The notes under the pieces were generated by a model that saw only the letters and a list, made by a program, of their open reading frames with translations, had not been told where the DNA came from and did not search any database. 64,000 bases of DNA, taken from NCBI RefSeq assembly GCF_964355755.1, contig NC_092672.1, positions 18,861,237 through 18,925,236 on the forward strand. Reading direction: 5' to 3'. Positions 3,476 to 53,200 of this stretch are shown one piece after another (the stretch's first letter is position 1; each line of letters begins with the position of its first letter). Origin of the DNA: Antedon mediterranea. Taxonomy: Eukaryota; Animalia; Echinodermata. The position numbers were made by a program, and so were the translations under genes.

Positions 3476-4840
3476 ATGAACCTTTTACGTGTCTCAATGT
3501 TTTGTACGATAATATTATTGAATATAGGCCTTACGTGCTTGGCTTCAGCAAAGGATTTTCTTGAGGAACCTGAGGATGTTAAAGTATTGTTTGCTACAGA
3601 ACATAGATTCAAGTGTACAGTTTCTACTAATAGTACTATACTAAGACATTCATTTTCATGGGTCAAAGATGGTGTGCTCATAGAAGATCAAGATGATATA
3701 TATGAAGGAAGATATTTTATTTTTACAAGCAATATTGTTAGCAATGACGTTTCTGTTCTAAATATTAAAGCCGTTAAAATAGAAGATGAAGGGTATTATC
3801 ATTGTTCTGTTGTACAGTTAAAAACAATGAAAACATTTGATTCTCGACGTGCGAGGTTGACAGTTAAATCGTTACCTAGGCCAATGTTTCCAGTATGCTT
3901 GCCTGCCGATAGCGTTGATGTTCTTGTTGGTACATCAATAAAACTCTCGTGTAAAAGTGAAAACGTTTTTCCTGAAGTAAATTTAAAATGGTACCAAAAT
4001 AGTAATGCAATAAATGATGGAGTTCATACATTTAAAGACGATGAATATGTCATATTAGAACTGATATTATCTGTGAAAAAAGAAGAAAATAATGATGTTT
4101 TTACTTGTCAGCAAACTTCTGAATTAGTACCTAGAAACATTTCTAGCTGCTCTGTCGGACCAATCACCGTTCGTTATAAACCTACTATCATTATTCAACA
4201 TACTGACCAGATATTACCAGGTAGGGATTCTATACTTTTCTGCCAAACCTTTGCAAATCCGCCGGTTACTAATTATAAATGGATATTTAGTCCTAAATTA
4301 AACAGAGACCAGTATTTTGTAGATGAAACAGGTCAGCTTTTAACTCTAACAAATCCAACATTTCAACAGAATGGAACTACTGTAACTTGCCTGGCGGAAA
4401 ATGAAGTTGGTGAAAATTCGTCAACAATTCGGTTACACATTGGAAAGTCGAATATTAATGAGAAAGCAAGTAATGCAGATTCATCTGGAATTCAAAAGTC
4501 AAGTGAAACCATAGATTTATCATTGGATGTAATCATAATCATTGCTGCTGGTGTCGTTATCATTATTGTACTTGTTGTTCTGGTTCCCATATATCATTAT
4601 TGTTTGTGTCGTAATGATAACAATATAATAGTTGATTCTTTAGGAAAAGAAGTAACTCAACCTGAAGTTTATTATGAGACAAGAGAGGGAGTTATTTTAA
4701 GACATACAGTACAAGATCGTTCGTTACCTCGTGTACCTACAACAGAAGTATATGGTCATTGGAGACATTCAACAGCTTCACAGGTTCCTAATGATCTTGA
4801 ATCACATAGTTATACTTATATTGACACAGAAAATGATTGA
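3476..4840 (+). CDS. G1: 3-Ig type-I membrane receptor (subfamily A, most divergent ectodomain)
   Basis: 454 aa uninterrupted ORF. Signal peptide; Ig1 FKC..WVKDG..DEGYYHC; Ig2 LSC..LKWY..FTC; Ig3 LFC..NPPV.YKW..VTCLAEN; TM VIIIIAAGVVIIIVLVVLVPIY; shared tail ending HSYTYIDTEND. Confidence 0.92.
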   Translation: MNLLRVSMFCTIILLNIGLTCLASAKDFLEEPEDVKVLFATEHRFKCTVSTNSTILRHSFSWVKDGVLIEDQDDIYEGRYFIFTSNIVSNDVSVLNIKAVKIEDEGYYHCSVVQLKTMKTFDSRRARLTVKSLPRPMFPVCLPADSVDVLVGTSIKLSCKSENVFPEVNLKWYQNSNAINDGVHTFKDDEYVILELILSVKKEENNDVFTCQQTSELVPRNISSCSVGPITVRYKPTIIIQHTDQILPGRDSILFCQTFANPPVTNYKWIFSPKLNRDQYFVDETGQLLTLTNPTFQQNGTTVTCLAENEVGENSSTIRLHIGKSNINEKASNADSSGIQKSSETIDLSLDVIIIIAAGVVIIIVLVVLVPIYHYCLCRNDNNIIVDSLGKEVTQPEVYYETREGVILRHTVQDRSLPRVPTTEVYGHWRHSTASQVPNDLESHSYTYIDTEND

Positions 4841-5269
4841 TAGCAACTTTCAATTTGAAGAACGTAATAATGGGAATATGATTAACGTATGTGCCTACCA
4901 TTATGAGAAACAATATAATTGTATTTATTCTAATTTATTCACACTAAAGAACTTCATCCTTAGCATTGTACATACGTTTGAGATTTGTTGAATTACGTCA
5001 TCTTTCCATCTATTATAAGTTATTCAGAAATAAGTACAGCTATGAATTATCTGGTCTTGATTATGAAGCATTCATTCACTCATTTCTTATATTTTGGTCA
5101 GTAGGCCTACATAATCCAAACCAAACTTTAATACAGTAACTTGATTTCTTATAAAAAATAAGTATTTCCTATATATTCTAAATTAAGGTCTATTTCTAAG
5201 TCATATAATAATTATATTTATGTCTTTTTTAGGGACATAAACACCATTGTATTTTAGATGGTTATTCAT

Positions 5270-7044: not shown

Positions 7045-8376
7045 ATGAGTTCTATTTTACTTCTTTTAGTTATATTATTGTCGCATTTGGAAAATTGTAA
7101 AGGAATAATTACAACACAACCTTTAGATGAAACCGTTAAAAAAGGAAAAAATCATTGGTTTCCCTGTGTTGCTGATGGAATTGAAAGTGATCAATCACTG
7201 CAATGGTTTCGAAATGGAAAGAGGTTGAACGAAGAACCAAGAATAACTATTGAGAATAATGAAAGTGGGACAAGTAGCATGCTATATATTACTGGAATTA
7301 TCCCAAGTGATGCAGGTCAGTATTATTGCGCAGTTGTAAAATCATCAACGGACGAAAAAATTGCTTCATCAAGAACTGCAACTCTCGTTGTCAAATCACT
7401 TCCCTCGTCCCAGTATCCATATTGTATTTTAGAAACAATACCGATCATTGCTGGATCAAATTTAAAATTATTATGTTTATCGGAGAAAGTGGTACCTCCA
7501 GTAACGTTAGATTGGATGTATCCAATAGATATTCGATATAAAAACACACAACTTATGGAAGATGGAAAAAATATATCGTTAGAGTTAAGCATGACAGCTA
7601 AAAAACAATATAACGGTATTGTGTTTAGTTGTAAACAAGAATCAACTTTAGTACAAAATAACTACACATTATGTTCTGTGGGTCCTTTGGATGTATTATA
7701 TAAACCAGATACTGCTGTACAGTACGCTAGTCCAGCACTACCAGGTCGTGAGACAATTGTATTTTGTCAAACCTCTTCAAATCCACCTGTAACCTCCTAC
7801 CGCTGGTTATTTGATCCGCAACTGTCAGAAGATGAATACAATATAGATGAATCTGGACAAATTTTAAAACTGTTAAATCCAAAAATCAAGCAAACTGGAA
7901 CTAATATATCATGTGTTGCCACAAACGAAGTAGGTTACGGGTCATCATCTGTAAATTTGCATGTGTCATATAACCAGGTGGATTCTGAACATGGATCGAC
8001 GACAGGTGATGAAAATCGTAACGAATTTCAAAGTAAGGAACGCGATATTGGTTTATCATTGGATGTAATTATAATCATTGCTGCTGGTGTTGTTATCATT
8101 ATTGTACTTGTTGTTCTGGTTCCCGTATATCATTATTGTTTGTGTCGTAATGATAACACTATAATAGTTGATTCTTTAGGAAAAGAAGTAACTCAACCTG
8201 AAGTATATTATGAGACAAGAGAAGGAGTTATTTTAAGACATACAGTACAAGATCGTTCATTACCTCGTGTACCTACTACAGAAGTATATGGTCATTGGAG
8301 ACACTCAACAGCTTCACAGGTTCCTAATGATCTTGAATCACATTGTTATACTTACATTGATACAGAAAATGATTGA
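7045..8376 (+). CDS. G2: 3-Ig type-I membrane receptor (subfamily B)
   Basis: The ORF track starts at a TTG; the first ATG (7045) gives signal peptide MSSILLLLVILLSHLENCKG. Three Ig domains, TM, shared tail. Confidence 0.92.
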   Translation: MSSILLLLVILLSHLENCKGIITTQPLDETVKKGKNHWFPCVADGIESDQSLQWFRNGKRLNEEPRITIENNESGTSSMLYITGIIPSDAGQYYCAVVKSSTDEKIASSRTATLVVKSLPSSQYPYCILETIPIIAGSNLKLLCLSEKVVPPVTLDWMYPIDIRYKNTQLMEDGKNISLELSMTAKKQYNGIVFSCKQESTLVQNNYTLCSVGPLDVLYKPDTAVQYASPALPGRETIVFCQTSSNPPVTSYRWLFDPQLSEDEYNIDESGQILKLLNPKIKQTGTNISCVATNEVGYGSSSVNLHVSYNQVDSEHGSTTGDENRNEFQSKERDIGLSLDVIIIIAAGVVIIIVLVVLVPVYHYCLCRNDNTIIVDSLGKEVTQPEVYYETREGVILRHTVQDRSLPRVPTTEVYGHWRHSTASQVPNDLESHCYTYIDTEND

Positions 8377-9485: not shown

Positions 9486-10814
9486 ATGAGTGTTATTCTG
9501 TTTCTAATTTTGTCAGCGTGTTTAAAAAGAATATATTGTGAAGGATTATTTAGAACTCAACCTTCAGATGGTGAAGTACTAAATGGAGAAACCCATTGGT
9601 TTTCCTGTGATTTTAACGAAATTCAAAGTGGTCAATCATTACAATGGTTCCGAAATGGAAAGAGGTTGAATGAAGAACCAAGAATAACAATTAATAGTAA
9701 GAATAGTGGGACAAGTTTGTTATATATTGCTGGAACTATCCCAAGTGATGCAGGTCAGTATTATTGCGCAGTTGTAAAATCATCAACGGATGAAACAATT
9801 GCTTCATCAAGAACTGCAACTCTCGTTGTCAAATCACTTCCCTCGTCCCAGTATCCATATTGTATTTTAGAAACAATACCGATCATTGCTGGATCAAATT
9901 TAAAATTATTATGTTTATCGGAGAAAGTGGTACCTCCAGTAACGTTAGATTGGATCTATCCAATAGATATTCGATATAAAAACACACAACTTATGGAAGA
10001 TGGAAAAAATATATCGTTAGAGTTAAGCATGACAGCTAAAAAACAATATAACGGTATTGTGTTTACTTGTAAACAAGAATCAACTTTAGTACAAAATAAC
10101 TACACATTATGTTCTGTGGGTCCTTTGGATGTATTATATAAACCAGATACTGCTGTACAGTACGCTAGTCCAGCACTACCAGGTCGTGAGACAATTGTAT
10201 TTTGTCAAACCTCTTCAAATCCACCTGTAACCTCCTACCGCTGGTTATTTGATCCGCAACTGTCAAAGGATGAATACAATATAGATGAATCTGGACAAAT
10301 TTTAAAACTGTTAAATCCAAAAATCAAGCAAACTGGAACTAATATATCATGTGTTGCCACAAACGAAGTAGGTTACGGGTCATCATCTGTAAATCTGCAT
10401 GTGTCATATAACCAGGTGGATTCTGAACATGGATCGACGACAGGTGATGAAAATCGTAACGAATTTCAAAGTAAGGAACGCGATATTGGTTTATCATTGG
10501 ATGTAATCATAATCATTGCTGCTGGTGTTGTTATCATTATTGTACTTGTTGTTCTGGTTCCCGTATATCATTATTGTTTGTGTCGTAATGATAACACTAT
10601 TATAGTTGATTCTTTAGGAAAAGAAGTAACTCAACCTGAAGTATATTATGAGACAAGAGAAGGAGTTATTTTAAGACATACAGTCCAAGATCGTTCATTA
10701 CCCCGTGTACCTACTACAGAAGTATATGGTCATTGGAGACACTCAACAGCTTCACAGGTTCCTAATGATCTTGAATCACATAGTTATACTTACATTGACA
10801 CTGATAATGATTAA
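9486..10814 (+). CDS. G3: 3-Ig type-I membrane receptor (subfamily B)
   Basis: The ORF track starts at a GTG; ATG 9486 gives signal peptide MSVILFLILSACLKRIYCEG. Nearly identical to G2 from late Ig1 onward. Confidence 0.92.
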   Translation: MSVILFLILSACLKRIYCEGLFRTQPSDGEVLNGETHWFSCDFNEIQSGQSLQWFRNGKRLNEEPRITINSKNSGTSLLYIAGTIPSDAGQYYCAVVKSSTDETIASSRTATLVVKSLPSSQYPYCILETIPIIAGSNLKLLCLSEKVVPPVTLDWIYPIDIRYKNTQLMEDGKNISLELSMTAKKQYNGIVFTCKQESTLVQNNYTLCSVGPLDVLYKPDTAVQYASPALPGRETIVFCQTSSNPPVTSYRWLFDPQLSKDEYNIDESGQILKLLNPKIKQTGTNISCVATNEVGYGSSSVNLHVSYNQVDSEHGSTTGDENRNEFQSKERDIGLSLDVIIIIAAGVVIIIVLVVLVPVYHYCLCRNDNTIIVDSLGKEVTQPEVYYETREGVILRHTVQDRSLPRVPTTEVYGHWRHSTASQVPNDLESHSYTYIDTDND

Positions 10815-13801: not shown

Positions 13802-15157
13802 ATGGAAAGAAACGTTTTATTTTTTCTCTTAGTAAATAATTTTGCAATGTTTTGTTTACACCATTGTAAGGCTACGATTGGATTTAAAGATCAGCCTTCT
13901 GACGCTCGCGTGGATCTTGGAAAGGATCACACCTTTTCCTGTATAGTTAATGGCATGGATAATCAACAAAATTTGGCTTGGTTAAAAGATGGAGTACTAA
14001 TACGAACTCAAGAAGATGATAATAGAATAACAATTGGATATAGCAACATCATCAAGATTGGAAAATTAACAACTTTGACTTTAAATAACCTTTTAAAATC
14101 TGACAGGGGACGTTATCAATGTGTCGTTATATCAACTGAAACAAATTCAGTAGAGGAACGTTCATTGGAGGCTATACTTACAGTGTTATCTCAACCGTCA
14201 TCGATATATCCACTGTGTTCTGGACATGAAGATAACATTGCCATTGGATCAGTTATAACAATTTCTTGTATTTCAGAACGTGTTGAACCTCCTGTAAATT
14301 TAACAATTTCTCGTAACATGAATATAGTTAAAAATGGTGTCTCGTTTGTAGAAAATGAAAAGTTACAAATGCTATTAAAAACAAGAAAAGAAGATAATCG
14401 AGCTATTTTCACATGCCATCAGACTTCACCACTAGCTCCCGAATCAGAATCTACGTGTTCTATTGGCCCGTTAAATGTTCAATATAAACCAGAAATACAG
14501 CTTCAATACACCAATCCTGTTATATCAGAAAGGGAGACAATTTTATTTTGTCAGACATCGTCTAACCCACCTGTTGGGACTTATAATTGGAAAATTGAAC
14601 CAAACTTTGCAAAAAGTGACTACAGTATTGATGAAACTGGACAGGTACTAAAACTAATCAAACCTTCGATAGTGCACAACGGAACAAATATTACATGCAC
14701 CGCTGTAAATAAAATCGGTAAATCATCATCAACCGTTACGATATTAGTTGAATCTCCGAATATTTTAAAAAGTAATGAGCAAAATGGCAAACTACGAAAT
14801 CAAAATTCAGGTAATAACATGACTGGAAAAAAATTATCATTGGATGTTATCATCGTAATCGCTTCTGGTGTTGTTATCATTATTGTACTTGTTGTTCTGG
14901 TTCCCGTATATCATTATTGTTTGTGTGGTAATGATAACACTATTATAGTTGATTCTTTAGGAAAAGAAGTAACTCAACCTGAAGTGTATTATGAGACAAG
15001 AGAGGGAGTTATTTTAAGATATACAGTACAAGATCGTTCATTACCTCGTGTACCTACTACAGAAGTATATGGTCATTGGAGACACTCAACAGCTTCACAG
15101 GTTCCTAACGACCTTGAATCGCATAGTTATACTTACATTGATACAGAAAATGATTGA
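13802..15157 (+). CDS. G4: 3-Ig type-I membrane receptor (subfamily C)
   Basis: 451 aa ORF with signal peptide, three Ig domains (WLKDG..DRGRYQC), TM and shared tail. Confidence 0.92.
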   Translation: MERNVLFFLLVNNFAMFCLHHCKATIGFKDQPSDARVDLGKDHTFSCIVNGMDNQQNLAWLKDGVLIRTQEDDNRITIGYSNIIKIGKLTTLTLNNLLKSDRGRYQCVVISTETNSVEERSLEAILTVLSQPSSIYPLCSGHEDNIAIGSVITISCISERVEPPVNLTISRNMNIVKNGVSFVENEKLQMLLKTRKEDNRAIFTCHQTSPLAPESESTCSIGPLNVQYKPEIQLQYTNPVISERETILFCQTSSNPPVGTYNWKIEPNFAKSDYSIDETGQVLKLIKPSIVHNGTNITCTAVNKIGKSSSTVTILVESPNILKSNEQNGKLRNQNSGNNMTGKKLSLDVIIVIASGVVIIIVLVVLVPVYHYCLCGNDNTIIVDSLGKEVTQPEVYYETREGVILRYTVQDRSLPRVPTTEVYGHWRHSTASQVPNDLESHSYTYIDTEND

Positions 15158-16126: not shown

Positions 16127-17476
16127 ATGGTTTTTTTATTGAGTATTAAGTTGTTTGTGATAACGTTTATTGTGGTCCGTGGTGATTTAATTAAATTTAT
16201 AGATGAACCTTTAAATGGATATGTTGATATTGGAAAGGACCACTCTTTGACTTGTGTTGTTAGCGGGTTAATTAATGAAGAACTTACATGGCATAAAAAT
16301 GGCGTACAGTTACTTTTTGAGGACGAAGACGTTAAATTACACATTTCTAAAACCAACAATGAAATATCAATCGGAAATATTACAACATTGGCTGTTTTAA
16401 ATGCTTTACGAAGTGATACCGGTTTATACCAATGTGTTGTTATATCATTGGAATCTGGAATAATTTTGAAAAAGTCGCGTAAAGCGGAATTAATTGTGCG
16501 TTCTTTTCCTTCTCCACAGTATCCCATTTGTCATCAACCTAGAGCTGACATTCCCTTGGGATCTACTATATCAATGTCATGTGTTTCTGAGAAAGTTAAC
16601 CCACCTGTAACTCTACAATTCATACGTAATTCTCAAAGTTTAAACGCTGGAACGATAAAACAAGAAATTGAAAAGTTTGTAAAATTTCGGCTTAAATTAA
16701 ACGCGACGAAAGATGACAATGGAGCTGTTTACGAATGTCACCAGTATTCATCATTTGATTCAAGTTATCGCAAATCATGTTCAATGAAACCTCTGAATAT
16801 ACAATATAAACCTGAGATTAAGATACAACACACTAATCCAGTGTTACCTGGACGAGAGACGATTCTGTTCTGCCAAACGTTTGCTAATCCACCTGTCTCA
16901 CAATACCGTTGGACATTAGTGCCTCCAATAAAAGATGAAGATATTATTGTTGACAAAACTGGACAAACATTAAAACTTGTGCGACCTTTAATTGAACAAA
17001 GTAGAACCAATATAACATGTACTGCTACTAATGAAATTGGACAGGTATCATCGTCTGTAGTATTAACAGTTTGAAATACTATCATTAACTCAGATAATTC
17101 GTACGAACCATCGAGTAATACAAACTTAAATAATTCCCAGAAAGAAATAAATTTATCATTAGATGTTGTTATCATCATCGCTGCTGGTGTTGTTATCATT
17201 ATTGTACTTGTTGTTCTGGTTCCAGTATATCATTATTGTTTGTGTCGTAATGATAACACTACAATAGTTGATTCTTTAGGAAAAGAGGTAACTCAACCGG
17301 AAGTATATTATGAGGCAAGAGAGGGAGTTATTTTAAGACATACAGTTCAAGATCGTTCATTACCTCGTGTACCTACTACAGAAGTATATGGTCATTGGAG
17401 ACACTCAACAGCTTCACAGGTTCCTAATGATCTTGAATCGCATAGTTATACTTATATTGACACAGAAAATGATTGA
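16127..17476 (+). CDS. G5: subfamily D member with an in-frame TGA at 17072-17074 (secreted 315 aa 3-Ig protein or young pseudogene)
   Basis: TCA(Ser) in paralogs is TGA here, directly after Ig3 (VVLTV*). The frame continues intact through stalk, TM and tail to 17476. Confidence 0.8.
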
Positions 17477-17666: not shown

Positions 17667-18707
17667 AAAATAGCACTTATATATAGCAATAATATTTTCA
17701 CTAATTTTACCTAGTTTCTGTTTTTTTTTCAATTTCACACTCTGATTATCACTGCCTTTACGGAAGGGAGTGGTCTGTGATCAGTGTTCGTTGAGCATCA
17801 CCAAGATCTGGATTCGAAGTATCGTCATCATTTGAATGTTGTGCAATTGTGGTGAATGTATCACAAATGCTTTAATATTTTTATGCCCATTTAAGTATTC
17901 CAGGCATTGGTATTTTATACATTTTACATTCATAGTTTATGCACAGTATTCATCTTAAACCGGATATTACTAGTGGCAAAACATACCCTTAGATAAATTT
18001 TAATGAAAGTCTTTGACCTTGGGCAATACTTTTATACTTTTAAGTGTATTGTATGTTTTAAAGAATGACTCATGTTGCAATAAATTTCTCGACAGAATAG
18101 GATCTCGTCCATCTACTAGGAAAATTGTTGATTGGATGTCTAAATTTGGAAAAAATATTAGACTCACTGGGATTTCTCACCAAATCCTCAATTTGTGAGT
18201 TTAGTTAGGTTCAGAACAAATTTCCTATGGAACTTCTTCCGATGAATTACCTGGTTGGAGTTTCTTATGGAGACACACCTAGACAATTCTCTAGTTCTGT
18301 TCTGACCACAGAGAAAAGGCATATCCAAGTTTTAGGAATACTCACTATAGGTATCCAATCAAAACAGAATGTCAACCAACATCTAAATCGTTAGTTTTAG
18401 ACTCTAGTTTCAATGTACAGGGTCACCATTGTACTAAAGGTTGTAAAACCTAAAAAACTAGATCTATGTCTAGGCTTCGCAGATTACTGACCGAGGATTG
18501 TTTCAGTAACTCTGTTAGTAGCTCTAGTCTGATGGACTACAGCTCTAGTAATAATGAGAGTAGTACAAGTGACAAAATAGTGATCAGGATAGGGCTTATA
18601 GTAATATAGTATAGTAATATAGTAATATTCTACGAGTACCATTCAATCCAAAAGACGACACTCGCATAGGCATTCCCACCGATCACAAAAACCTAAAATC
18701 ACAACAT

Positions 18708-18818
18708 TTACCTCGTGTATCTACTAAAGAAGTATATGGTCATTGAAGACACTCAACAGCTTCACAGGTTCCTAATGATCTTGAATTACATAGTTTTACT
18801 TATATTGATAAATATTGA
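18708..18818 (+). pseudogene. Orphan fragment of the constant cytoplasmic tail
   Basis: ttacctcgtgtatctactaaagaagtatatggtcattgaagacactcaacagc... reads LPRV.T.EVYGH*RHSTASQVPNDLE (TGG>TGA). Confidence 0.85.
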
Positions 18819-19059: not shown

Positions 19060-19640
19060 TCTGCATGGTTATTTACCTGTTCTTAAGAAAACGGTACAGT
19101 AAAATGACAATATTATTTGTTAACAGTAATTCTTACCTTCTTGTGTTGAAGCTATTAGTTTATATATGAAAGAGAATCATTCTTTTTCGTTGTATTGTTA
19201 GTGGATTAAAGAATAAAAATCTTACATGGTTTGAAAATGGTGGACAGATATATATCAATGAAGAAGAATGACAAATGTCTGTAATCCACAGAAATTCATT
19301 CGAAAATTTAACTACCTTTGTTACTATAGATGCATTTTTATCAATGCGCTCTTATGTCATTGGAATCTGGAAGAGTATTGTAAAGTTCACGTAAAACGGA
19401 ATTACTGGTGTGTTCACTACCTTCATTGGTCGTCAATCAAAAGGTAACATTATCTTAGGTTCTACAAAATGTTTCTGAAAACGTTACCACCTCCCCCTCC
19501 CTGTAATTTTACAATTTACTAGTAATTATCAAAATGTAAACTCTAGAATATCAACTGCAGAGACAGAAACTTAGTAGAAGTTCAATTTAAATTGAACGCA
19601 AACAAATATGAAAATTGAGCTACTGTATATACGAATGTCA
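19060..19640 (+). pseudogene. Decayed 5' copy (leader, Ig1, Ig2) of a subfamily D gene, most like G9
   Basis: Leader aagaaaacggtacagtaaaatg, then cttacatggtttgaaaatggtggacagatatat (LTWFENGGQIY), cctgtaattttacaatttac and tacgaatgtca; many indels and stops. Confidence 0.8.
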
Positions 19641-21183: not shown

Positions 21184-21620
21184 TATCGGGGTTTATGGCC
21201 CGATCTAAGATCAAATTTTCTTCAATTGATACGATAGATGAAATAAATAACATTTAAGCATCATTCTAAAGAAAAATTTAGTAAGTATTAATAAATGTTC
21301 TATTAATTTGATATTGTTAATTACTTTAACGCAATAGGCCTATTCAAATTGGATTTAATTATCCTCCGTGTAGATATCTCTGATGTCGAGGACCATAGTA
21401 TGCTTTGATAATTACACGTTTTCACCTAATTGTGGTAACGAAGTAATGCTAATCCTTTTCTTTGTAATCATATTGTCAGTTTGTAGAGCCATGTCATGTC
21501 ATGTCATGAATAGTTAACAATGTGTATAATAAGGTATTATGCAGGTATGTATTATGTATCAAAGAATAATGACATACGGTTTTGCAGGCAATCGTCATTA
21601 CTTTTCAAGTAGTTTTAAGA

Positions 21621-27615: not shown

Positions 27616-27754
27616 TAGGAAGGTAGCTAAAAGTAAGTCTAGGATCAAATTAATTTACATAAGGGAAAAATTAGGTAAATCGTCAGTTACTTACAGAATT
27701 TTTACTCGATGGTATATACAGTTGGCTCATATTTTCGGTACTGTTTACTAATTA

Positions 27755-34377: not shown

Positions 34378-34516
34378 TAGGAAGGTAGCTAAAAGTAAGT
34401 CTAGGATCATATTAATTTACATAAGGGAAAAATTAGGTAAATCGTCAGTTACTTACAGAATTTTTACTCGATGGTATATACAGTTGGCTCATATTTTCGG
34501 TACTGTTTACTAATTA

Positions 34517-36956
34517 AGATTATGGTGTCAATGTAAGATTAATTAATGATGCAATTCAGTATATGGATAACGGCAGGTTAACAGGAGCTCTTGTTAGCGT
34601 AGATTTTAGTAAAGTCTTTGACACTGTAAATAGACATTTTCTTGTACGTACCTTGCGTTATTTCAATTTTGGTTCTTCTTTCATTTCATGGGTGAACGTA
34701 CTGTATTCAGATACAGAATGTGTAATAATGAATAACGGTTGGTGTTCAAAAAGCTTCAAAATGCATAGAGGGATCAGACAAGGCTGTCCCCTTTCTGCCT
34801 TACTATTAATTTTAGTAGCAGAAATAATGGCTATAAGAATTAAAAGTGATCAAAATATCGAAGGGATTGCCCTTCCAGGCAAGGATGACTATACAACTGA
34901 AGTCAAAATTGCACAATTAGCAGATGACACAGTTTTATTTCTAAAAAATGAAAACAGTATAAAGAATAGCATTGATAAAATCGTTGAATTTGGTCTAGTA
35001 TCAGGTTTAAAGCTAAACAAAGAAAAAACCAATGCCAGGGCGTTGGAAAAACAGAAAGAAGAACGAAAATGTGTTCAACATCAATTGGGTGTACAGTAGT
35101 TTTAAGATTCTAGGTATACATGTTGGCCATGACAAAGAAATATGTTTTACTAAAAACTGGTCTGAAAAAATTCAATCTTTTAAAAAAATGCTTGATACAT
35201 GGCACAAAAGAAACCTCTCGATATTTGGCAAAGTTATGATTTTAAAAACACTGGGTTTAGCAAAGTTAATCTACAACGCAAGTATTATAGATACCCCTGA
35301 ATGCGTTTTAAATGAAGTCGATAAAATTGTATTCGATTTTATTTGGAATAATAAAACAGAAAAGATAAAAAGATTAACATTAATCAATGATTATAATAGT
35401 GGTGGAATAAATGCTCCAGACTTCAGATGTCAAGTCAAGGCACTACAAATGTCATGGCTTAAAATATTGTACAATGATGACACTTCAAAATGGAAGTGTT
35501 TACCTAAAATGTATTTTAACAAAATAGGTCCAAGAGAGGTTATTGAAAATATATCATATGTAAAATATAAAGAAACACATTACAGTAGTATGCCTTTATT
35601 ATATAAATCAATGTTAAAGTATTTAGCTGAATTCAATCAATATTCTGTCAAAATGTCACTTTCCTATGAACAAATGATAGAACAACCTATATGGGGCAAC
35701 AACTTGATAACACACAATGGTTTCTCACTCCTTTATAGGAATTGGATTAGATCTGGTATAACAAAGATGAAACATATTATAATTGATAACAGATTTATTA
35801 ATACAAATGAATTACTATTTTTGTTAAATATCAAATCGAATTGGATTGCTGAATTGTCATGTCTACTAAAAGCAATACCACGAGAATGGAAAGATATAAT
35901 TTATTCAAAAATTGATAATGTAAAAGTTAACGAAGTTATATCAATACAGTATAGTAAAATGAGTTGTAAAAACATTCGTCTCCTTTTTATCAAAAAAAAA
36001 ATGTAAAGAACCAACCAAGAGTAAAACAAAGTGGGAAACACATTTTAATATAGCGAACGATTGGACACTGACATGGAAAAGAAAAGTAAATGATATTAAA
36101 GATAAACTTAAACAGCTAAATTTCAAACTATTGCATTGTATTATTCTTACCAATAGAAGGCTCTTTAAATGGAATATTAATAATACAGACACTTGCCTGC
36201 AATGTAATGTAATAGAAGATGATAAACACTTCTTTTACCAATGTACTGAAGCAAATGATTTATGGAAATACATTAATGTTTATACCCCATATAAGTTTGG
36301 AATTGAGGCAAACTTTCAAAATATTGCACTCGGTACCGGAAACAGATATATTGACCACATGTTCTCTCTTGGATGATTCTGTATCTATAAAGCACACATT
36401 TTGAAAAAAGTAAAGAAATGGAATTATGGTTCACTTTCTCGCCTCTTTTTGGCAGAAAAAAAATAATAGGTTATACCTTAACCGACTATTATAATACGGT
36501 ATATTCTACAGAGGTTTATATAACGCTGTACAATGCCAATAGGTGGTTAAATCTTTATATAGAATTATTTTTAAAAAATGAAAATAAATGAAATAAATAT
36601 TAAAAACAAAACGAAACGTAACATATAAGTAAGCAACAAATATAACCATGAGACATAAAACTAAAACACAAGAGTAAGGAAAGAATTTTTTTAAGCTCAC
36701 TATAATTATTTGAATTTTATATTTTTATTTATGTTCTTATTGTAAAAAAAAAAAAAAAACAGAATTAAGAATAATAATTGTATTGCATTTTATATATTGT
36801 AAATATTTATTTATTTATATACCTTTGTCGTGGGTATGTATTTTTGCATGTGTGCAATCATGTACTCGAATATATGTATGCACTTGTGTGTTTTGTACAG
36901 AGACATAGACCTATTGTAGAAAGGAATAGTTAAAATAAAAGAAAATAATTAAAAAA
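34517..36956 (+). mobile_element. 5'-truncated Tx1/L1-clade LINE, copy 2 (with A-rich 3' end)
   Basis: Same sequence, same 5' junction and same frameshift (near 35040) as copy 1, so it was duplicated with its flanks. Confidence 0.9.
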
Positions 36957-37030
36957 GTGGATAATACATATAAAAGTGCAGGCAGCACTTGCCAGCTTTA
37001 TACTATGACGTTATCCAAATTCCTTCACTT

Positions 37031-37067
37031 GCACTGATGAAGGGCTAGTGTTGCCCGAACGCTCTGC
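37031..37067 (+). ncRNA. Minimal type-I hammerhead-ribozyme-like motif in a Penelope-like pLTR remnant
   Basis: gca CTGATGA a gggc tagtgtt gccc GAAC gc TC tgc: conserved core with GAAA>GAAC, stem II gggc/gccc, stem I gca/tgc. Confidence 0.5.
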
Positions 37068-37203
37068 TAACTTTTCTGGCTGTTTACTTTATCGTTTTGA
37101 TTTAGCTTTTCGCTTTTTATTTTTGTATCTCCATTGAGATCCAGCCACTGATACCCACAGCATTGTCATTTTTTTCAATGATGTTGCGTAGCACTGTGTA
37201 AAT

Positions 37204-37581
37204 TATATATAAATCATACTGTAAATTATAGAAACAGTGCTCATATTCGGAACATGATCTCATAATCGCGTCGAGCATAGCTCATTGGCGAAAGTTCCGT
37301 ATTTTTTTAGTTGTATGAAAAAATGTCTCTGGCGGGATTCGAACCTGCAACCTCTCGCTTACAGGGCGAGTATCATACCACTAGACCACAGAGCCATGTA
37401 TGGTATTATCACAGAGGTTGCAGGTTCGAATCCCGCCAGAGACATTTTTTCATACAACTAAAAAAATACGGAACTTTCGCCAATGAGCTATGCTCGACGC
37501 GATTATGAGATCATGTTCCGAATATGAGCACTGTTTCTATAATTTACAGTATGATTTATATATATATATATATATATATAT
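37204..37581. mobile_element. Fold-back element with ~150 bp arms containing a tRNA-like sequence, inserted in (TA)n
   Basis: Arms 37204-37355 and 37413-37564 are reverse complements with a 57 bp spacer; TA repeats at the ends. Confidence 0.8.
37324..37395 (-). other. tRNA-like (tRNA-Pro-resembling) Pol III unit, probably a pseudo-tRNA or SINE head
   Basis: GGCTCTGTGGTCTAGTGGTATGATACTCGCCCTGTAAGCGAGAGGTTGCAGGTTCGAATCCCGCCAGAGACA has an A box, a B box and anticodon stem CTCGC/GCGAG. C at position 33 and imperfect T and acceptor stems argue against a functional tRNA. Confidence 0.6.
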
Positions 37582-37976
37582 TTGACCGAATTGTTTCGAT
37601 CAAATCGTACTAAAGATAAAAGAAAGTACAAGAAAATAACAGAACAGAATAACAAGGGAATGTATATTTGGATGAAGTGTAAAATCATTGTATTGATCAT
37701 TTGAGAATGAAATGAATAAAATAGTGGTTAACGCCACAAAAGAGAAAAAAAAATTAAGATTAGTTAGATAATAATATTAGTTATTGACAATTAAAAAGAA
37801 TTTAGATTCAACGATTTCCCGCCAATTATGGGTGTTTTTCGATCGTGGGATACTGTCTAATGGATGTCGATGCTAAAAAATACGTATTTACCTATCTCCT
37901 TCTAAAAATAATTGTTTTAAAATCTGAAAACAGCTCGAGTACAGAATCATGATGTTGAAGACAAACCCATATTTAA

Positions 37977-38460
37977 ACTAGAAAGCCACTCCGGGAGTGC
38001 ATACCTCCGCCAACTGTAAAATTCTCCTACATAAGATTCTCCGGGGAAAAAAAATATATTTGTGTGTGTCTTAATGCTGTTTGTGATTTAGGCTAATTTC
38101 ACTACAAGATGTGTATGCGAGTTTGGTGTAAAGGTATAACAAACTTTTCAATTAATTATAGCTTCAGTTGACTAACAATAGAGCAGCAACGCGAAAATCA
38201 AAAGAGTGAATTTGAAAAGAAATAGGTTTTTTTAAAACTACTCGCATCAAAAAGGTGCATGTTAAATCGAATTATGTTTTAAAATTACAAATAACAAATT
38301 ATAACTCGTTTTTTAAACAAGTAGTTCTCGAAAAAATGCAATTTCAGTTTACTTGTTACTTTAAGACTGCTCGCCGGCTTTTGAAAAATCTGTCGTATCG
38401 TTTAACACTAGCAGGTCTGAAAATAATTATAAAAAGTGGTCCAGAATTGGGAGTTTTATA
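37977..38460 (+). repeat. HINE-like element copy
   Basis: Start actagaaagccactccgggagtgcatacctccgcc is shared with 11694 and 62755. Confidence 0.65.
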
Positions 38461-41195
38461 GAATGTGTAATTTTATTGTCACATAATAGTTATTCACGTT
38501 AACCAAACAATTATTTATCTGAAAAAATGTAATTTAAAGCAAAAAATATTTAAATCGTCTGTCAGACAATGGTTGTTGGGTTATAATTAAACGTTTCGTT
38601 ACGTTAATTATACTAAATAAATATTTTTTGTTTGTTACAGAAGTGATTAACTTGTTTCTGAAGTAAAATACAACAAGAATTCCTACTTTGATATGAAACA
38701 GACTCAATTTCGGTCACTGTCAAGTCTGGGGTCACTTCATCAAGCCTAGATACTTTAAGTGTAAAGTATCCTATTACAAACAAAATCTTTAATGGACTGT
38801 TTTGATAATAATTCAATGATTATCTGACTGCTTTGCTTTGGGATTTGTAATTTTAGCATGACGTGTCCTAGTAAAAAATAAAGAAAAAACGTCGGCCTCT
38901 ACTATAACTACTGCTTACTTTCAGCTTTTGAATGAGTAGTCCTCTTGGGACGTAGCTGGCTAAAGCAGCAGCGTGAAACAAATACTATACTATGTACTAA
39001 ATAGATTTAGACCTACATACGTTTATAGAAACGTATTGCTTAGGGATAAATGGAACATTCTAATCTCTTAGTCTTTTTTTACCATCATTATTTGGTATAA
39101 CACAAATAGATAAGACCTAGACCTACATTTTAATAGCAGACATAAATAGTATTGCAAAAGTTAGTTAAAATAGTGTATAACAAATGTTGACAATAAATAT
39201 AAACCATTTTCAGTCGCTTGCAACGCGACTATGCGGCTCACTATGTCGGTCGGTTGGTCGGTCGTTCGGTAAACACTAACTTGAGCATGCGAATGCAGCC
39301 ATCTATATTTCCTTGTTTTTCTTACTGTGAGTGTGGGTACTGTTAGATACATGAACACATATACAAATAAACATTATTACTGACAGTTTTTTGTATTAGG
39401 CCTATTATTAATAATATATAACATATAAACGTCTTAGTAGTGTATCGTTACATAATACTTTACTATTTCAATCGACTATGGCAGTGACAGTTTCAATAAA
39501 GTATTACGTCGCAAATGTTTTACTGTGTTTAGTGGTACATTATTTATAAAACATGAAAACAAATTAATTCCGTTACTGAGTGGATAAAGAATATATCTAA
39601 AATTGTTCCTCTTTGCACTTCCCCATCCCTCAACTCTAATATTATGTACAAAATACAAATTTGGTTTGTTTAAGTTTGACCAAATTGTTTTCTCTTTCGG
39701 AAGTAATTCCCATGATGCTAAGTTTAGTTGTTGACTAAATAAATCACCGTGTCTATTTATTCGTTCATGTAAATGACATGTATAGTCCTATGGTACCAAC
39801 TTAGCATTGCGTACTTTTAAAAATCGCCAGTTTTTTACGCTAAAATTACTGTGCATTCGAGAACCATTTTTGGGCACGACCTAGATGGTACGAAGCGAGG
39901 CAAGCGTACCATTTATTATTTTCAATTAACAGAAATCTGCTGAATATAGCTTATTAATCTCCACTGTGTTATTTTATGTTCTGTTGAGACATACTTTATA
40001 CATGTTGGAATCATAAATATTTCCTCCATACTTTGTATAAATATAACTTGAACTTTTGTTTAAAGTTTTAATTGAAAGAGGTGTATCTCTGTAGGTAATA
40101 TCTTACGACACTGGTATGGTAATCAATAATTTGTTGTTAAATGGGAATTTTGTGTTTCTTCACCATTTTTTTCTGTTATTAGCGGTGTGCGTCAAATGGG
40201 TGTAATGTCTCCGCTGCTTTACAGTATATATGACGATCTTAATGCACAACTTAAAGAGAGTCCAATTATTGGGGTAGGCCTACTATTTGTGATAAAAAGG
40301 TAAATTGTCTCAGCTACGCTGATAACATGGTTCCCATTGCTCCTTCTGCTATTGGTGTACATATAATAATCTCATTAATGTGTGTGTGATCTTTTTGCTA
40401 TGGATTGATATATGTTGTATAATTCTATAAAACTCAAGTGTATGGCATTATTTCTTATTATTGTAAGTTACGAACCACACTGTCCTCGAAATTGTTGATT
40501 GTATAACATATTAGTTAGATATGTGATTTGTAACTAATGCTGATATTAAGAAAGAGTATTGAGCTTTGTGCATCAGAGCTAATATATTATGCAGGACATT
40601 TTCCAAATTAGTTATTTAAAAACGTATTTCCTTAATGTATGACTCCATTGAGTAAATTCAAGGTGAAAGGTACTGTGAACTCATTTAGAGTTTGCTTTAA
40701 TAATGGGTTACCTGTTACAATGATAGCACAAGCATAATGTTTGTTGTTAAGAATTATTACGTTCCCCCAATTTATGAATATTGAGAACTCCATCCTTATT
40801 TTACTGAATTCATGACAATTGTAATAATAGCTTATTTAAAACAATAGTCAATGCAAAATCCAACCTGCATCAGCGTTGGTGCGAATTGATATTTTCGGGT
40901 TGTTTTTGTGGTAGATTCTATCTTAAAGAGTAATATTTTGTATAATTCAATACAATATTTAAGATTTATATTAACTTCTAATAGAAAAAAATTTATAAGC
41001 GTTTCCTTAGATTCATTTTAATTAAGTATATAATGTGATAATGATGTTTTATAAAGTTTTTGAGAAAACGAGAAACACAACTTTGTAATATACTGGTACA
41101 ACGTCATGACCGATAGACTATTGAACAGTTCTGTAGGTACTGGCATAATAGCTTTGCATGATTCTGTACCTGTTCGTAAGAAATGATACAGTAAA

Positions 41196-42545
41196 ATGAG
41201 CACTTTGCTAACAGTGATTCTTACATTGATTATGACAACGGGTTGTGTAGTTTGTGACGGACCTATTACGTTTATAGATGAACCCATAAACGGATATGTT
41301 GATATTGGAGAAGATCATTCTTTTTCTTGCATTGTTAGTGGGTTAATGAATGAGAAGCTTACATGGTATAAAGATGAAAGTCTGATGATGTTAAATGAAG
41401 AAGAATCTAGAATATCTGAAGTCCAAAATGAAGTATCATTTGGAAATTTTACAACATTGGTTATTGACAATACATTGCAAAGTGATACCGGTTTCTATCA
41501 ATGTGTTGTTATATCATTAGCGTATGGAGGAATATTGAAACGTTCTCGTAAAGCGGAATTAATTGTTCGTTCTTTACCTTCTTCAGAATATCCCCTTTGT
41601 CATCAATCAAAACCTGACACTCTGTTAGGTTCTACAATGTCAATGTCATGTGTTTCTGAAAAGGTTACCCCACCTGTAACTTTACAATTTACACGTAATT
41701 CTAAAAGTACAAACTCTGGAATACCAATGCCAGAGGAAGGAAACTTGGTAACAGTTCAACTTACAAAAAACACGACGAAAGATGATAATGGTGCAGTATA
41801 CGAATGTCACCAGCATTCATCATTTGATTCAAATTATCACAAATCATGTTCAATGAAACCTCCGAATATACAATATAAACCTGAGATAAAGATACAACAC
41901 ACTAATCCAGTGTTACCTGGACGAGAGACGATTCTATTCTGCCAAACATTTGCTAATCCACCTGTCGCACAATACCGTTGGACATTAGTGCCTCCAATTA
42001 AAGATGAAGATATTTTTGTAGAAAAAACTGGACAAACATTAAAACTGTTACGACCTTTAATAAAACAAAGTGGAACCAATATAACATGTACTGCTACTAA
42101 TGAAATTGGACAGGTATCATCATCTGTTTTATTAACAGTTTCAAATACTATCATTAACTCAGATAATTCGTACAAACCATCGAGTAATACCAACTTAAAC
42201 AATTCTAAGAAAGGAATAAGTTTATCATTAGATGTTGTTATTATCATCGTTGCTGGTGTTGTTATCATTATTGTACTTGTTGTTCTGGTTCCCGTATATC
42301 ATTATTGTTTGTGTCGTAATGATAACACTATAATAGTTGATTCATTAGGAAAAGAAGTAACTCAACCTGAAGTGTATTATGAGACAAGAGAGGGAGTTAT
42401 TTTAAGACATACAGTACAAGATCGTTCATTACCTCGTGTACCTACTACAGAGGTATATGGACATTGGAGACATTCGACAGCTTCACAGGTTCCTAATGAT
42501 CTTGAATCACATAGTTATACCTATATTGACACAGAAAACGATTGA
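41196..42545 (+). CDS. G10: 3-Ig type-I membrane receptor (subfamily D)
   Basis: 449 aa ORF; Ig1 nearly identical to G8. Confidence 0.92.
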   Translation: MSTLLTVILTLIMTTGCVVCDGPITFIDEPINGYVDIGEDHSFSCIVSGLMNEKLTWYKDESLMMLNEEESRISEVQNEVSFGNFTTLVIDNTLQSDTGFYQCVVISLAYGGILKRSRKAELIVRSLPSSEYPLCHQSKPDTLLGSTMSMSCVSEKVTPPVTLQFTRNSKSTNSGIPMPEEGNLVTVQLTKNTTKDDNGAVYECHQHSSFDSNYHKSCSMKPPNIQYKPEIKIQHTNPVLPGRETILFCQTFANPPVAQYRWTLVPPIKDEDIFVEKTGQTLKLLRPLIKQSGTNITCTATNEIGQVSSSVLLTVSNTIINSDNSYKPSSNTNLNNSKKGISLSLDVVIIIVAGVVIIIVLVVLVPVYHYCLCRNDNTIIVDSLGKEVTQPEVYYETREGVILRHTVQDRSLPRVPTTEVYGHWRHSTASQVPNDLESHSYTYIDTEND

Positions 42546-43399: not shown

Positions 43400-44740
43400 A
43401 TGTTGTTATCTTTGAGTTTTGCGTTGGTTATAACACCGTTTTATGTTATTTGTGATGCGGTTATTCAGTTTATAGATGAACCATTAAACGGACAAGCAGA
43501 TCTTGGTGAGGACCACTCTTTGTATTGTGTCGTTAGTGGGTTAATTAATGAAGAGCTTACTTGGTTTAAAAATGGTGGATTGATAGCTTTTGTTGAAGAC
43601 TCACGGATATCTAAAGGTAATAGTGAAATATCCACCGGAAATATAACAACATTGGTCATTGACAAAACATTGCGAAGTGATGCAGGCTTTTATCAATGTG
43701 TCGTTATATCATTGGAATCTGAGAGGGTATTAGAAAGTTCACGAAAAGCGGAATTAATTGTGCGTTCTGTTCCTTCTCTAGAATATCCCGTTTGTAATCA
43801 AACCAAAGGTGACATTTTATTGGGTTCTACTATATTAATTTCATGTGCTTCTGAAAAGGTTACCCCTCCTGTAACTTTACAATTTACACGTAATTCTAAA
43901 ATTATAAACTCTGGAATACTAATGCAAGAGACAGGAAACTTAGTAAGAGTTCAATTTACGTTACAGGCGACGAAAGATGACAATGGAGCTGTTTACGAAT
44001 GTCACCAGTATTCATCATTTGATTTAAATTATCACAAATCATGTTCAATGAAACCTCTGAACATACAATATAAACCTGAGGTAAAGATACAACACACTAA
44101 TCCAGTGTTACCTGGACGAGAGACGATTCTATTCTGCCAAACTTTTGCTAATCCACCTGTCTCACAATACCGTTGGACATTAGTGCCTCCAATAAAAGAT
44201 GAAGATATTTTTGTAGACAAAACTGGACAAACATTAAAACTGTTACGACCTTCAATAAAACAAAGTGGAACTACTATAACATGTACTGCTACTAATGAAA
44301 TTGGACAGGTATCATCGTCTGTAGTATTAACAGTTTCAAATAATGTCATTAACTCAGATAATTCGTACGAACCATCGAGTAATACAAACTTAAACAATTC
44401 CCAGAAAGAAATAAGTTTATCATTAGATGTTGTTATTATCATCGCTGCTGGTGTTGTTATTATTATTGTACTTGTTGTTCTGGTTCCCGTATATCATTAT
44501 TGTTTGTGTCGTAATGATAACACTACAATAGTTGATTCTTTAGGAAAAGAAGTAACTCAACCTGAAGTTTATTATGAGACAAGAGAGGGAGTTATTTTAA
44601 GACATACAGTACAAGATCGTTCATTACCTCGTGTACCTACTACAGAAGTATATGGTCATTGGAGACACTCAACAGCTTCACAGGTTCCTAATGATCTTGA
44701 ATCACATAGTTATACTTATATTGATACTGAAAATGACTGA
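43400..44740 (+). CDS. G11: 3-Ig type-I membrane receptor (subfamily D)
   Basis: 446 aa ORF; 3' flank homologous to the G6 3' flank (21184-21460). Confidence 0.92.
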   Translation: MLLSLSFALVITPFYVICDAVIQFIDEPLNGQADLGEDHSLYCVVSGLINEELTWFKNGGLIAFVEDSRISKGNSEISTGNITTLVIDKTLRSDAGFYQCVVISLESERVLESSRKAELIVRSVPSLEYPVCNQTKGDILLGSTILISCASEKVTPPVTLQFTRNSKIINSGILMQETGNLVRVQFTLQATKDDNGAVYECHQYSSFDLNYHKSCSMKPLNIQYKPEVKIQHTNPVLPGRETILFCQTFANPPVSQYRWTLVPPIKDEDIFVDKTGQTLKLLRPSIKQSGTTITCTATNEIGQVSSSVVLTVSNNVINSDNSYEPSSNTNLNNSQKEISLSLDVVIIIAAGVVIIIVLVVLVPVYHYCLCRNDNTTIVDSLGKEVTQPEVYYETREGVILRHTVQDRSLPRVPTTEVYGHWRHSTASQVPNDLESHSYTYIDTEND

Positions 44741-51856: not shown

Positions 51857-53200
51857 ATGTTGCTACCTTTTAGATTTTGGTTGTTACTGACAACGTGTAT
51901 TGTAATTTGTGATTCTGTTATCCAGTTTATAGATGAACCCGTAAACAGAAATGTGGATCTCGGGAAGGATCAGTCTTTGAATTGCGTGGTTAGTGGGTTA
52001 ATAAATGAAGAGCTTACGTGGTATAAAGATGACGCAGAAATATTCTTCGATGAAAAAAACTCGCGAATCACTAAAGTTCACGACGAATTGTCATTCGGAA
52101 ACATAACGACGTTAGTTATTTCAGATGTATTGCAAAGTGATGCCGGTTTTTATCAATGTGTTGTTATGTCATTGGACTCTAGAATTGTATTGAAACGTTC
52201 ACAAAAAGCGAAGTTAATTGTACATTCTCTGCCTTCTCTGGAATATCCTATTTGTAACCAACCTACAGCTGATATTTTCTTAGGTTCTACTATATCAATG
52301 TCGTGTGTTTCAGAGAAGGTTACTCCACCTGTAACTTTAAAACTTACTCGAAATTCACAAAACCGAAATTATGGAATATCAAAACCAAACACAGAAAACT
52401 TGGTGACAGTTCAACATACAATGAACGCTACAAAAGATGATAATGGAGCAGTTTACGAATGTCACCAGTATTCATCATTTGATTCAAGTTATCACAAATC
52501 ATGTTCAATGAAACCTCTGAATATACAATATAAACCTGAGGTAAAGATACAACACACTAATCCAGTGTTACCTGGACGAGAGACGATTCTATTCTGCCAA
52601 ACGTTTGCTAATCCACCTGTCTCACGATATCGTTGGAAATTAGTGCCTCCAATAGAAGATGAAGATATTTTTGTAGACAAAACTGGACAAACATTTAAAC
52701 TTTTACGACCTTCAATAGACCAAAGTGGAACAACTATAACATGTACTGCTGCTAATGAAATTGGACAAGTATCGTCGTCTGTAGTATTAACAGTTTCAAA
52801 TACTATCATTAACTCAGATAATTCGTATGAACCATCGAGTAAAACAAATATAAACAATTATCAAAAAGGAATTAGTTTATCTTTAGATGTTGTTATTATC
52901 ATCGTTGCTGGTGTTGTTATCATTATTGTACTTGTTGTTCTGGTTCCCGTATATCATTTTTGTTTGTGTCGTAATGATAACACTACAATAGTTGATTCTT
53001 TAGGAAAAGAAGTAACTCAACCTGAAGTTTATTATGAGACAAGAGAGGGAGTTATTTTAAGACATACAGTACAAGATCGTTCATTACCTCGTGTACCTAC
53101 TACAGAAGTATATGGTCATTGGAGACACTCAACAGCTTCACAGGTTCCTAATGATCTTGAATCGCATAGTTATACTTACATTGACACAGAAAATGATTGA
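51857..53200 (+). CDS. G12: 3-Ig type-I membrane receptor (subfamily D), last member visible
   Basis: 447 aa ORF, same architecture and tail. Confidence 0.92.
   Translation: MLLPFRFWLLLTTCIVICDSVIQFIDEPVNRNVDLGKDQSLNCVVSGLINEELTWYKDDAEIFFDEKNSRITKVHDELSFGNITTLVISDVLQSDAGFYQCVVMSLDSRIVLKRSQKAKLIVHSLPSLEYPICNQPTADIFLGSTISMSCVSEKVTPPVTLKLTRNSQNRNYGISKPNTENLVTVQHTMNATKDDNGAVYECHQYSSFDSSYHKSCSMKPLNIQYKPEVKIQHTNPVLPGRETILFCQTFANPPVSRYRWKLVPPIEDEDIFVDKTGQTFKLLRPSIDQSGTTITCTAANEIGQVSSSVVLTVSNTIINSDNSYEPSSKTNINNYQKGISLSLDVVIIIVAGVVIIIVLVVLVPVYHFCLCRNDNTTIVDSLGKEVTQPEVYYETREGVILRHTVQDRSLPRVPTTEVYGHWRHSTASQVPNDLESHSYTYIDTEND

Follow-up and report, generated by a model that had tools for sequence, protein, structure and literature searches.

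Introduction

In the clustered protocadherins (Pcdh), ectodomain and transmembrane segment (TM) are encoded by one exon and the 3' parts of the genes are subject to regional gene conversion with a sharp boundary; moreover, the Pcdh-beta genes do without constant exons, and the converted regions of fugu protocadherins show a rise in third-position GC content (GC3) (PMC1852091). In the chelicerate sDscam genes, variable 5' cassettes are spliced to shared exons for Ig and FNIII domains, TM and tail (PMC10084454). The Alr receptors of Hydractinia have their domains on separate exons and carry immunoreceptor tyrosine-based activation and inhibitory motifs (ITAM and ITIM) in tails that are more divergent than the ectodomains (PMC9546547). 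Echinoderms are described as being devoid of clustered protocadherins (PMC10734073), and their kirrelL gene is reported to be intronless in all echinoderms examined and to be needed for the fusion of skeleton-forming cells (PMC8903837). Here, we describe a tandem array of Ig receptor genes in the crinoid Antedon mediterranea, which was located by six-frame translation of a 64-kb stretch of contig NC_092672.1; this whole stretch is hereafter termed the window, and all positions refer to its first letter.

The array comprises 12 receptor genes (G1 to G12) between positions 3476 and 53200, all of them on the plus strand and each encoding a signal peptide (SP), three Ig domains (Ig1 to Ig3), a stalk, a TM and a tail, as an initial annotation of the sequence had proposed. 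With the clustered protocadherins, especially Pcdh-beta and those of teleosts, it shares tandem co-oriented genes whose divergent 5' and homogenised 3' parts meet at a sharp boundary, and the analogy drawn in that annotation is a good one with respect to the regional conversion of 3' parts (PMC1852091). Nevertheless, the array features Ig instead of cadherin domains, the six cadherin repeats being absent, and unlike Pcdh alpha and gamma it has no shared constant exons but repeats the whole tail in each gene. Chelicerate sDscam-alpha and -beta resemble it in their tandem Ig cassettes, variable N-terminal Ig domains and common output, yet the crinoid genes lack FNIII domains and every copy is complete. 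The Hydractinia Alr genes likewise form a cluster of invertebrate Ig-type single-pass receptors with pseudogenes, but the array has open single frames, uniform tails and, in the tail family of the window (family I), no ITAM or ITIM. This is the opposite pattern, and the initially proposed Alr analogy is wrong for the tail.

Homogenisation of the transmembrane segment and tail

Each gene of the array has its own tail and stop codon, and the tail is homogenised within each species, an origin of the constant part that the initial annotation had missed. Amino-acid identities were computed over 43 between-subfamily pairs and 21 pairs within subfamily D. Between the four subfamilies (A: G1; B: G2 and G3; C: G4 and G7; D: G5, G6 and G8 to G12), which appear as the same groups in the ectodomain tree presented below, identity amounts to 0.37 in Ig1, 0.36 in Ig2, 0.55 in Ig3 and 0.22 in the stalk, and rises to 0.91 in the TM and 0.97 in the tail. 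Within subfamily D, the corresponding values are 0.67, 0.75, 0.91, 0.84, 0.98 and 0.98. The near-invariant TM plus tail of the initial annotation is thereby corroborated, whereas the fall of divergence from Ig1 to Ig3 that it had reported is smooth within subfamily D only and not in comparisons between subfamilies.

Synonymous divergence (dS) between subfamilies ranges from 1.6 to 2.0 across SP, Ig domains and stalk, as opposed to 0.30 in the TM and 0.14 in the tail. Fourfold degenerate sites are identical between subfamilies in 533 of 599 comparisons in the TM and 1268 of 1424 in the tail, as opposed to 256/657 in Ig1, 262/744 in Ig2 and 375/1016 in Ig3 (0.35-0.39), the gene pairs not being independent of one another. 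As a control, fourfold identity at 61 invariant ectodomain residues amounts to 537/1343 (0.40); in addition, shuffling within codon boxes gives a fourfold identity of 0.556, and none of 500 shuffles attains the 0.890 observed for TM and tail. Ectodomain and tail are both under purifying selection, since the ratio of nonsynonymous to synonymous divergence (dN/dS) is 0.06-0.08 in the tail and ~0.2-0.4 in the Ig domains. At the DNA level, the homogenised block spans ~325 nt from the start of the TM to the stop codon in all 12 genes (plus strand, e.g., 44417..44740 in G11 and 4516-4840 in G1) and shows 93-96% blastn identity between subfamilies. At the stop codon, identity drops from 0.92 to 0.32, and the 3' flanks of the array genes are unrelated. 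The tails differ by 1-15 nt in every gene pair, and their minor variants are distributed as a patchwork that is common to different subfamilies.

Because fourfold identity reaches 0.89 in TM and tail against 0.35-0.39 in the Ig domains, with codon bias accounting for 0.556, gene conversion, and not the use of shared exons, is the most likely origin of the constant tail. Hence, the sequences very probably record the concerted evolution of a single module, TM plus tail, which regional gene conversion homogenises in addition to strong purifying selection. Conversion between paralogs would be limited to the part whose similarity is maintained by purifying selection, from the TM to the stop codon, and might in this way give rise to a "constant region" without shared exons. 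The array would constitute a clean case of such an Ig-family constant region derived from gene conversion instead of shared exons.

Some results weigh against this interpretation. Tail similarity does not decay with the distance between genes (Spearman -0.06, p 0.64), and of 66 gene pairs only 10 passed a run test for conversion tracts over the entire coding sequence. Furthermore, GC3 drops in the tail (0.12 against 0.21-0.23) instead of rising as in the converted protocadherin regions of fugu (PMC1852091). GC-biased conversion is accordingly not supported, third-position GC being lower rather than higher in the tail. In all 12 genes together, tail fourfold sites contain 4% G+C (18/411), compared with ~20% in the Ig domains, which is the opposite of what GC-biased conversion produces.

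Relatives and phylogeny within crinoids

A search with G11 yielded 34 relatives among 5304 candidates, namely 24 from Anneissia japonica, six named proteins of Antedon mediterranea and four of the window's own; 22 of the 24 Anneissia japonica matches are located on one scaffold of 1,305,899 bases, and all ten Antedon ones on one contig of 38,962,182 bases. In an index-free search against 1.84 billion representatives, the stalk, TM and tail of G11 gave 15 matches, 14 of which were crinoid. P0043, a duckweed repeat protein with neither Ig domain nor TM, was dropped as a chance match to the tail. A profile of 21 family proteins retrieved three matches among 3467 candidates, all of them crinoid, in a word-based search that does not itself show absence outside crinoids, and the tail region of P0041 matched only itself among two candidates in a search of the same kind. 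None of the Pfam families matched the tail, which had not been recognised in the initial annotation either, and in the ESM Atlas G1 matched nothing but generic Ig receptors, while the tail had no firm match. Within the reach of these searches, relatives were found in two crinoids only, in agreement with the lineage-specific family that had been postulated. Apart from tail family I, the relatives include another family with uniform tails (family II) and a number of more distant proteins; the Antedon representatives of both are on the window's contig.

An ectodomain tree was built from Ig1 to Ig3 of 39 proteins, excluding P0021, P0022 and P0028 (truncated), P0035 (fused) and the distant members except P0036. 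In this tree, G1 pairs with P0017 of Anneissia (support 97/96, both on long branches), G2 and G3 with P0014 and P0018 (100/100), G4 and G7 with P0008 (100/99), and subfamily D with P0001 to P0006 (100/99). Since each of the four subfamilies has Anneissia partners, the ectodomain subfamilies predate the split of Antedon and Anneissia. On the contrary, a tree of TM and tail from 27 family-I rows unites all 12 window genes in one clade (100/95, bootstrap not fully settled). Cross-species groupings of TM and tail were rejected by the approximately unbiased (AU) test for the three subfamilies tested, A (p-AU 0.00055), B (6.9e-8) and C (0.0024). Within TM and tail, seven alignment columns of family I and eight of family II hold residues that are fixed by species. 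Judged by these two trees, the ectodomain lineages are older than the species and the tails are younger.

The public annotation of Anneissia contains two peculiarities. P0035 (XP_033118862.1) is a RefSeq model of 1463 amino acids that fuses four array genes; the family is undercounted in the public annotation. In addition, four wholly different family-II proteins (P0027, P0030, P0032 and P0028; XP_033118812-818) are labelled by RefSeq as isoforms X1 to X4. These consecutive isoform labels point to one locus with a shared, probably non-coding exon, and the set suggests that shared non-coding exons are spliced to alternative coding exons.

The open full-text literature that was searched, subscription papers being outside its scope, contains no description of the array. 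A review of the invertebrate immunoglobulin superfamily does not mention crinoids in its available part (PMC11999971), and the main text of the Anneissia genome paper contains neither "adhesion" nor "immun", although its supplements on expanded families may list these genes (PMC7351957). Proteins of the array family are known only under automatic RefSeq names, such as "cell adhesion molecule 4-like" and similar ones for the crinoid relatives. The crinoid Ig-receptor array is real and apparently undescribed.

Architecture, tail motifs and putative function

Ig-clan domains, along with a weak Mid2 match at the TM, were detected in all four array proteins scanned against Pfam, and neither FNIII domains nor cadherin repeats were found in them. 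In an AlphaFold2 model of G11, the three Ig domains are predicted with confidence, residues 342-370 form the TM helix and the tail is disordered. Ig2 carries four cysteines in each of the 12 window genes. The top Foldseek matches include Necl-4 and nectin-1 at 20-21% identity, and the solved folds closest to the ectodomain also encompass SYG-2, DIPs and IgLONs (~20% identity). The array thus has the extended three-Ig ectodomain of nectins, Necl/CADM, Kirrel/SYG and Dpr/DIP/IgLON proteins, at ~20% identity to the best solved structures, but it differs from them in its unrelated tail, its open single frames and its tandem arrangement with concerted evolution. Nectins and Necls possess a C-terminal PDZ-binding motif, whereas a class I or II PDZ C-terminus is absent from all six family-I tails scanned.

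The tail features a juxtamembrane cysteine pair, QPxxY, RxxPxxP, WxxSxxxQ and a C-terminal YxxI. QPxxY and W-x-x-S/H-x-x-x-Q are each present in all 22 family proteins scanned, and RxxPxxP in 19 of them. Scanning of six family-I tails revealed no ITIM, ITAM or immunoreceptor tyrosine-based switch motif (ITSM); a distal ITIM-like string was found in only two of the 22 scanned proteins, the distant relatives P0046 and P0049. The TM of the array receptors is free of charged residues.

From such sequence features, the array may well represent a crinoid code for cell recognition or adhesion, with a variety of ectodomains converging on a single intracellular signal, a reading to which we give an even chance. 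By analogy to the biology of nectin, Necl, Kirrel and KirrelL, the ectodomains would engage family members exposed on neighbouring cells, in a homophilic or within-family heterophilic manner and probably via Ig1. The motifs of the tail suggest that it could recruit SH3/SH2 adaptors and the cytoskeleton, and the expressing cells might most readily be neurons or skeleton-forming mesenchyme. As such, the array is a concrete, testable candidate for how cells distinguish self from neighbour in echinoderms, and it comes from the class of echinoderms that branched off first. A more far-reaching version, which we consider improbable, holds that crinoids have convergently evolved a protocadherin-like neuronal identity code from intronless Ig genes, in which single cells pick a subset of ectodomain lineages, the exchange of Ig1 tracts generates new specificities, and conversion instead of splicing maintains a constant signalling region. 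In the sister tail family, the choice may depend on splicing, with common non-coding leader exons joined to one or another complete coding exon, as a mirror of the protocadherins; the isoform set XP_033118812-818 suggests this.

A recognition code is also opposed by several findings. Site models (M1a/M2a, M7/M8 and M8a/M8) applied to the seven subfamily-D genes, which are paralogs rather than alleles and afford low power, detected no positive selection in Ig1 (M7/M8 p 0.12, M1a/M2a p 0.59), Ig2 or Ig3. Ig1 variation, which peaks in the C-D segment and the FG loop, is not significantly higher on the face presumed to bind (mean states 2.15 vs 2.00, p 0.33), and between subfamilies Ig2 has diverged as much as Ig1. 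When upstream regions were aligned across subfamilies, only one of nine pairs exceeded shuffles. Finally, the pseudogenes, the truncated copy and the mosaic genes described below fit immune receptors equally well.

The selection results bear on another explanation that we regard as rather unlikely, namely that the genes are redundant and provide dosage or tissue-specific versions of a single KirrelL-like function, e.g., adhesion or fusion of skeleton-forming cells, with ectodomains of little specificity. The conversion of the tail would then be a side effect of the tandem arrangement combined with strong constraint. It is consistent with this explanation that about a third of the codons in Ig1 and Ig2 are near neutral under M1a (0.34 and 0.43, respectively), that the variation is spread across both sheets, and that the architecture is by eye like that of the skeletogenic proteins KirrelL, Kirrel2L, Hypp1164 and IgTM. 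Redundancy is at odds, however, with four ectodomain lineages at 36-40% identity that are each kept in two species, with the presence of several distinct tail families on one chromosome, and with upstream regions in which Ets sites are not enriched (26 vs 27.5 expected) and Alx1-type sites show a weak excess (half sites 30 vs 21.2 expected, palindromes 4 vs 1.7).

By architecture, these four proteins, which the initial annotation had not named, form the closest echinoderm family as compared by eye, sharing SP, three Ig domains, stalk, TM and tail; KirrelL and Kirrel2L moreover appear by eye to have the same [YF]PxC at the join of Ig1 and Ig2 and a second cysteine pair in Ig2. Aj-KirrelL, in contrast, differs by eye from the proteins of the window and of Anneissia and is longer, with an entry of 623 characters compared with 442-454 amino acids. 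PMC8903837, the text of which does not contain the word "cluster", lists one gene per species, and no KirrelL occurred among the homolog-search matches of array proteins. Judged by eye, the array genes are not KirrelL orthologues.

Gene catalogue and turnover of the array

Subfamily A is represented by G1 (3476..4840), a type-I receptor of 454 amino acids with three Ig domains, subfamily B by G2 (7045..8376, 443 amino acids) and G3 (9486..10814, 442), and subfamily C by G4 (13802..15157, 451) and G7 (23150..24481, 443). Subfamily D comprises G5 (16127..17476), G6 (19843..21183, 446), G8 (26266..27615, 449), G9 (33028..34377, 449), G10 (41196..42545, 449), G11 (43400..44740, 446) and G12 (51857..53200, 447). 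E-values between paralogs are as low as 1e-191. The uninterrupted coding sequences of the initial annotation are confirmed for 11 of the 12 genes, which are open from signal peptide to stop and encode 442-454 amino acids, but not for G5, where an in-frame TGA at 17072-17074 terminates the frame after Ig3 (315 amino acids) and leaves stalk, TM and tail intact behind it. In the other 11 genes, the same codon reads TCA (seven), TCT (three) or GGA (one). The sequence implies that the product of G5 would be secreted or that G5 would be a young pseudogene.

The supposed single coding exon agrees with the open frames of these 11 genes at the level of DNA alone, yet not with the RefSeq model of G7, XP_071944284.1 of Antedon mediterranea, which corresponds to G7 minus a 138-nt GT..AG segment and hence lacks the TM while retaining the tail. 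This model may be a prediction artefact. The in-frame 138-nt segment exists both in G7 (~24135-24272) and in G4 (14811-14948), where it encompasses the last part of the stalk together with TM and juxtamembrane region.

Four relics, the number initially annotated, are all situated on the plus strand between G5 and G8. R1 (18657..18809) is a decayed tail fragment with stops and shifts (tblastn 63-65% identity, E 1e-13), R2 (19100..19640) a decayed SP-Ig1-Ig2 stretch of subfamily-D type, R3 (21566..22221) a G2-like copy with an internal deletion and frameshifts (blastn 94% and 87% to the G2 region), and R4 (25019..25250) another decayed tail fragment. A recent tandem duplication on the same strand (26993..41050) consists of two copies of a unit formed by the 3' part of a gene, a fragment of a long interspersed nuclear element (LINE), a spacer, and the promoter and SP of the next gene. 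The non-coding parts of this G8-G10 unit are 96-100% identical, a reverse transcriptase (RT) fragment lies within it at 27756-28334, and the second copy contains ~1.4 kb of extra DNA (36668-38076).

G9 is a mosaic, as its Ig3-to-tail part resembles G8 and its upstream DNA resembles G10, and its Ig1 shares 68-69% identity with the Ig1 of either gene, the G8 and G10 domains being 97% identical to each other. This would reflect the transfer of an Ig1 tract between genes; a joining of two haplotypes by the assembler is less likely. R2 was ruled out as the donor of the G9 Ig1, with a DNA identity of only ~67%. In addition, G2/G3 and G4/G7 are near-identical from Ig2 onward and differ in SP and Ig1; for instance, G3 is ~98-100% identical to G2 from Ig2 to the tail, with identities of 0.33 in the SP and 0.75 in Ig1. 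The array is therefore subject to birth and death of copies and contains mosaic Ig1 tracts.

Such turnover could equally be that of immune or non-self receptors, which would reside on coelomocytes or epithelia, recognise ligands of microbial or other foreign origin, pass the signal on via the common tail and employ G5 and TM-less forms as soluble decoys. The birth and death of copies (four relics and one truncated copy), the recent duplication with exchange of Ig1, the TM-less RefSeq model of G7 and a weak hint of haplotype presence/absence at 42491-43630 are all in line with this view. Paired immune Ig receptors of the KIR, SIRP, CEACAM and NITR type, however, have ITIM/ITAM tails or a charged TM residue and form activating/inhibitory pairs, whereas the six family-I tails lack ITIM, ITAM and ITSM and the TM is uncharged. 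Conversion in these receptors usually homogenises the ectodomains while the tails differ, but in the array it is the tail that is homogenised. Considering moreover that the low-powered site models found no positive selection and that the subfamilies are retained in two crinoid species, we deem an immune role fairly unlikely. If the receptors were nevertheless immune or skeletogenic, the array would still define a previously undescribed family of crinoid receptors whose conserved tail is new.

The mosaic G9 and the reads are also relevant to an allorecognition locus like Hydractinia Alr1/Alr2, in which allelic Ig1 variants bind matching alleles only. If two haplotypes had been joined, the G9 Ig1, at 68-69% identity to G8 and G10 inside flanks that are 96-100% alike, would be allelic, and the half depth at the 5' end of G11 is weakly compatible with this. 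Yet feather stars are not colonial. Moreover, 1-6 mismatches over 280-503 nt separate pieces of a second sample (X1) from G3, G4, G10 and G12, which does not amount to hyperpolymorphism across two samples and short contigs. Alr tails are diverse and carry ITAM/ITIM, with domains on separate exons (PMC9546547), and altogether allorecognition appears highly improbable.

Reads and assembly

Short-read contigs were derived from four runs of one sample and from one run (X1) of another, the depth of contigs not being equivalent to copy number. They match unique junctions of genes and flanks with 0-1 differences over 0.9-1.4 kb. The notion that the array or its uniform tails stem from collapsed or falsely joined repeats is scarcely credible, even though no short-read contig spans the array, the G8-G9-G10 spacers are 96-100% alike and G1 has several times single-copy depth. 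Every tail pair is distinguished by its 1-15 nt, ectodomains differ by up to 64%, and the independent Anneissia assembly contains the same subfamilies, with 22 of 24 matches on one scaffold. A wholesale assembly artefact is ruled out by the close junction matches together with the Anneissia cluster, and any doubt is limited at most to the G8-G10 triplet.

X1 had been taken for an RNA run, but in the same way as the DNA runs it extends over repeats and intergenic DNA, and it yielded no usable splice joints. The stretch at 42491-43630, which contains the G10-G11 spacer and the 5' end of G11, has about half of single-copy depth in three runs of one sample, with no second allele; haplotype presence/absence is a possible explanation. 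In the 5' part of G1 (3336-4002), depth is roughly four to five times that of single-copy DNA and position 3883 carries a majority variant, a weak hint that there may be more G1-like copies outside the window or collapsed copies. There is likewise a hint of about twice single-copy depth in the part shared by G4 and G7.

Upstream regions and repetitive elements

A candidate promoter motif, G[AT]AACA[CT]AA or CG[ACT]G[AT]AACA, is found ~104-149 nt 5' of the ATG in all 12 genes, these patterns having been picked after viewing and seven of the 12 genes being close kin. The pattern CG[ACT]G[AT]AACA has 13 matches on the plus strand and none on the minus strand. A promoter element common to all subfamilies is not supported, in view of the single cross-subfamily upstream pair out of nine above shuffles.

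Fragments of retrotransposons without long terminal repeats (non-LTR) are located at 5354-6211 (minus strand), 27756-29700 (plus), 34518-36400 (plus) and 53476-54018 (minus). RVT_1 was matched in all three RT-bearing frames scanned, and one of the retrotransposon fragments belongs to the duplicated G8-G10 unit. A tRNA-like match on the minus strand at 37324-37395 (Rfam RF00005, 55.2 bits) lies inside the extra 1.4-kb segment between G9 and G10 and is possibly a tRNA-derived short interspersed nuclear element (SINE). Upstream of the array, an open frame of 166 codons at 1168-1668 (minus strand), which has no Pfam match, is embedded in repeat-rich surroundings and looks like a fragment of a retroelement.

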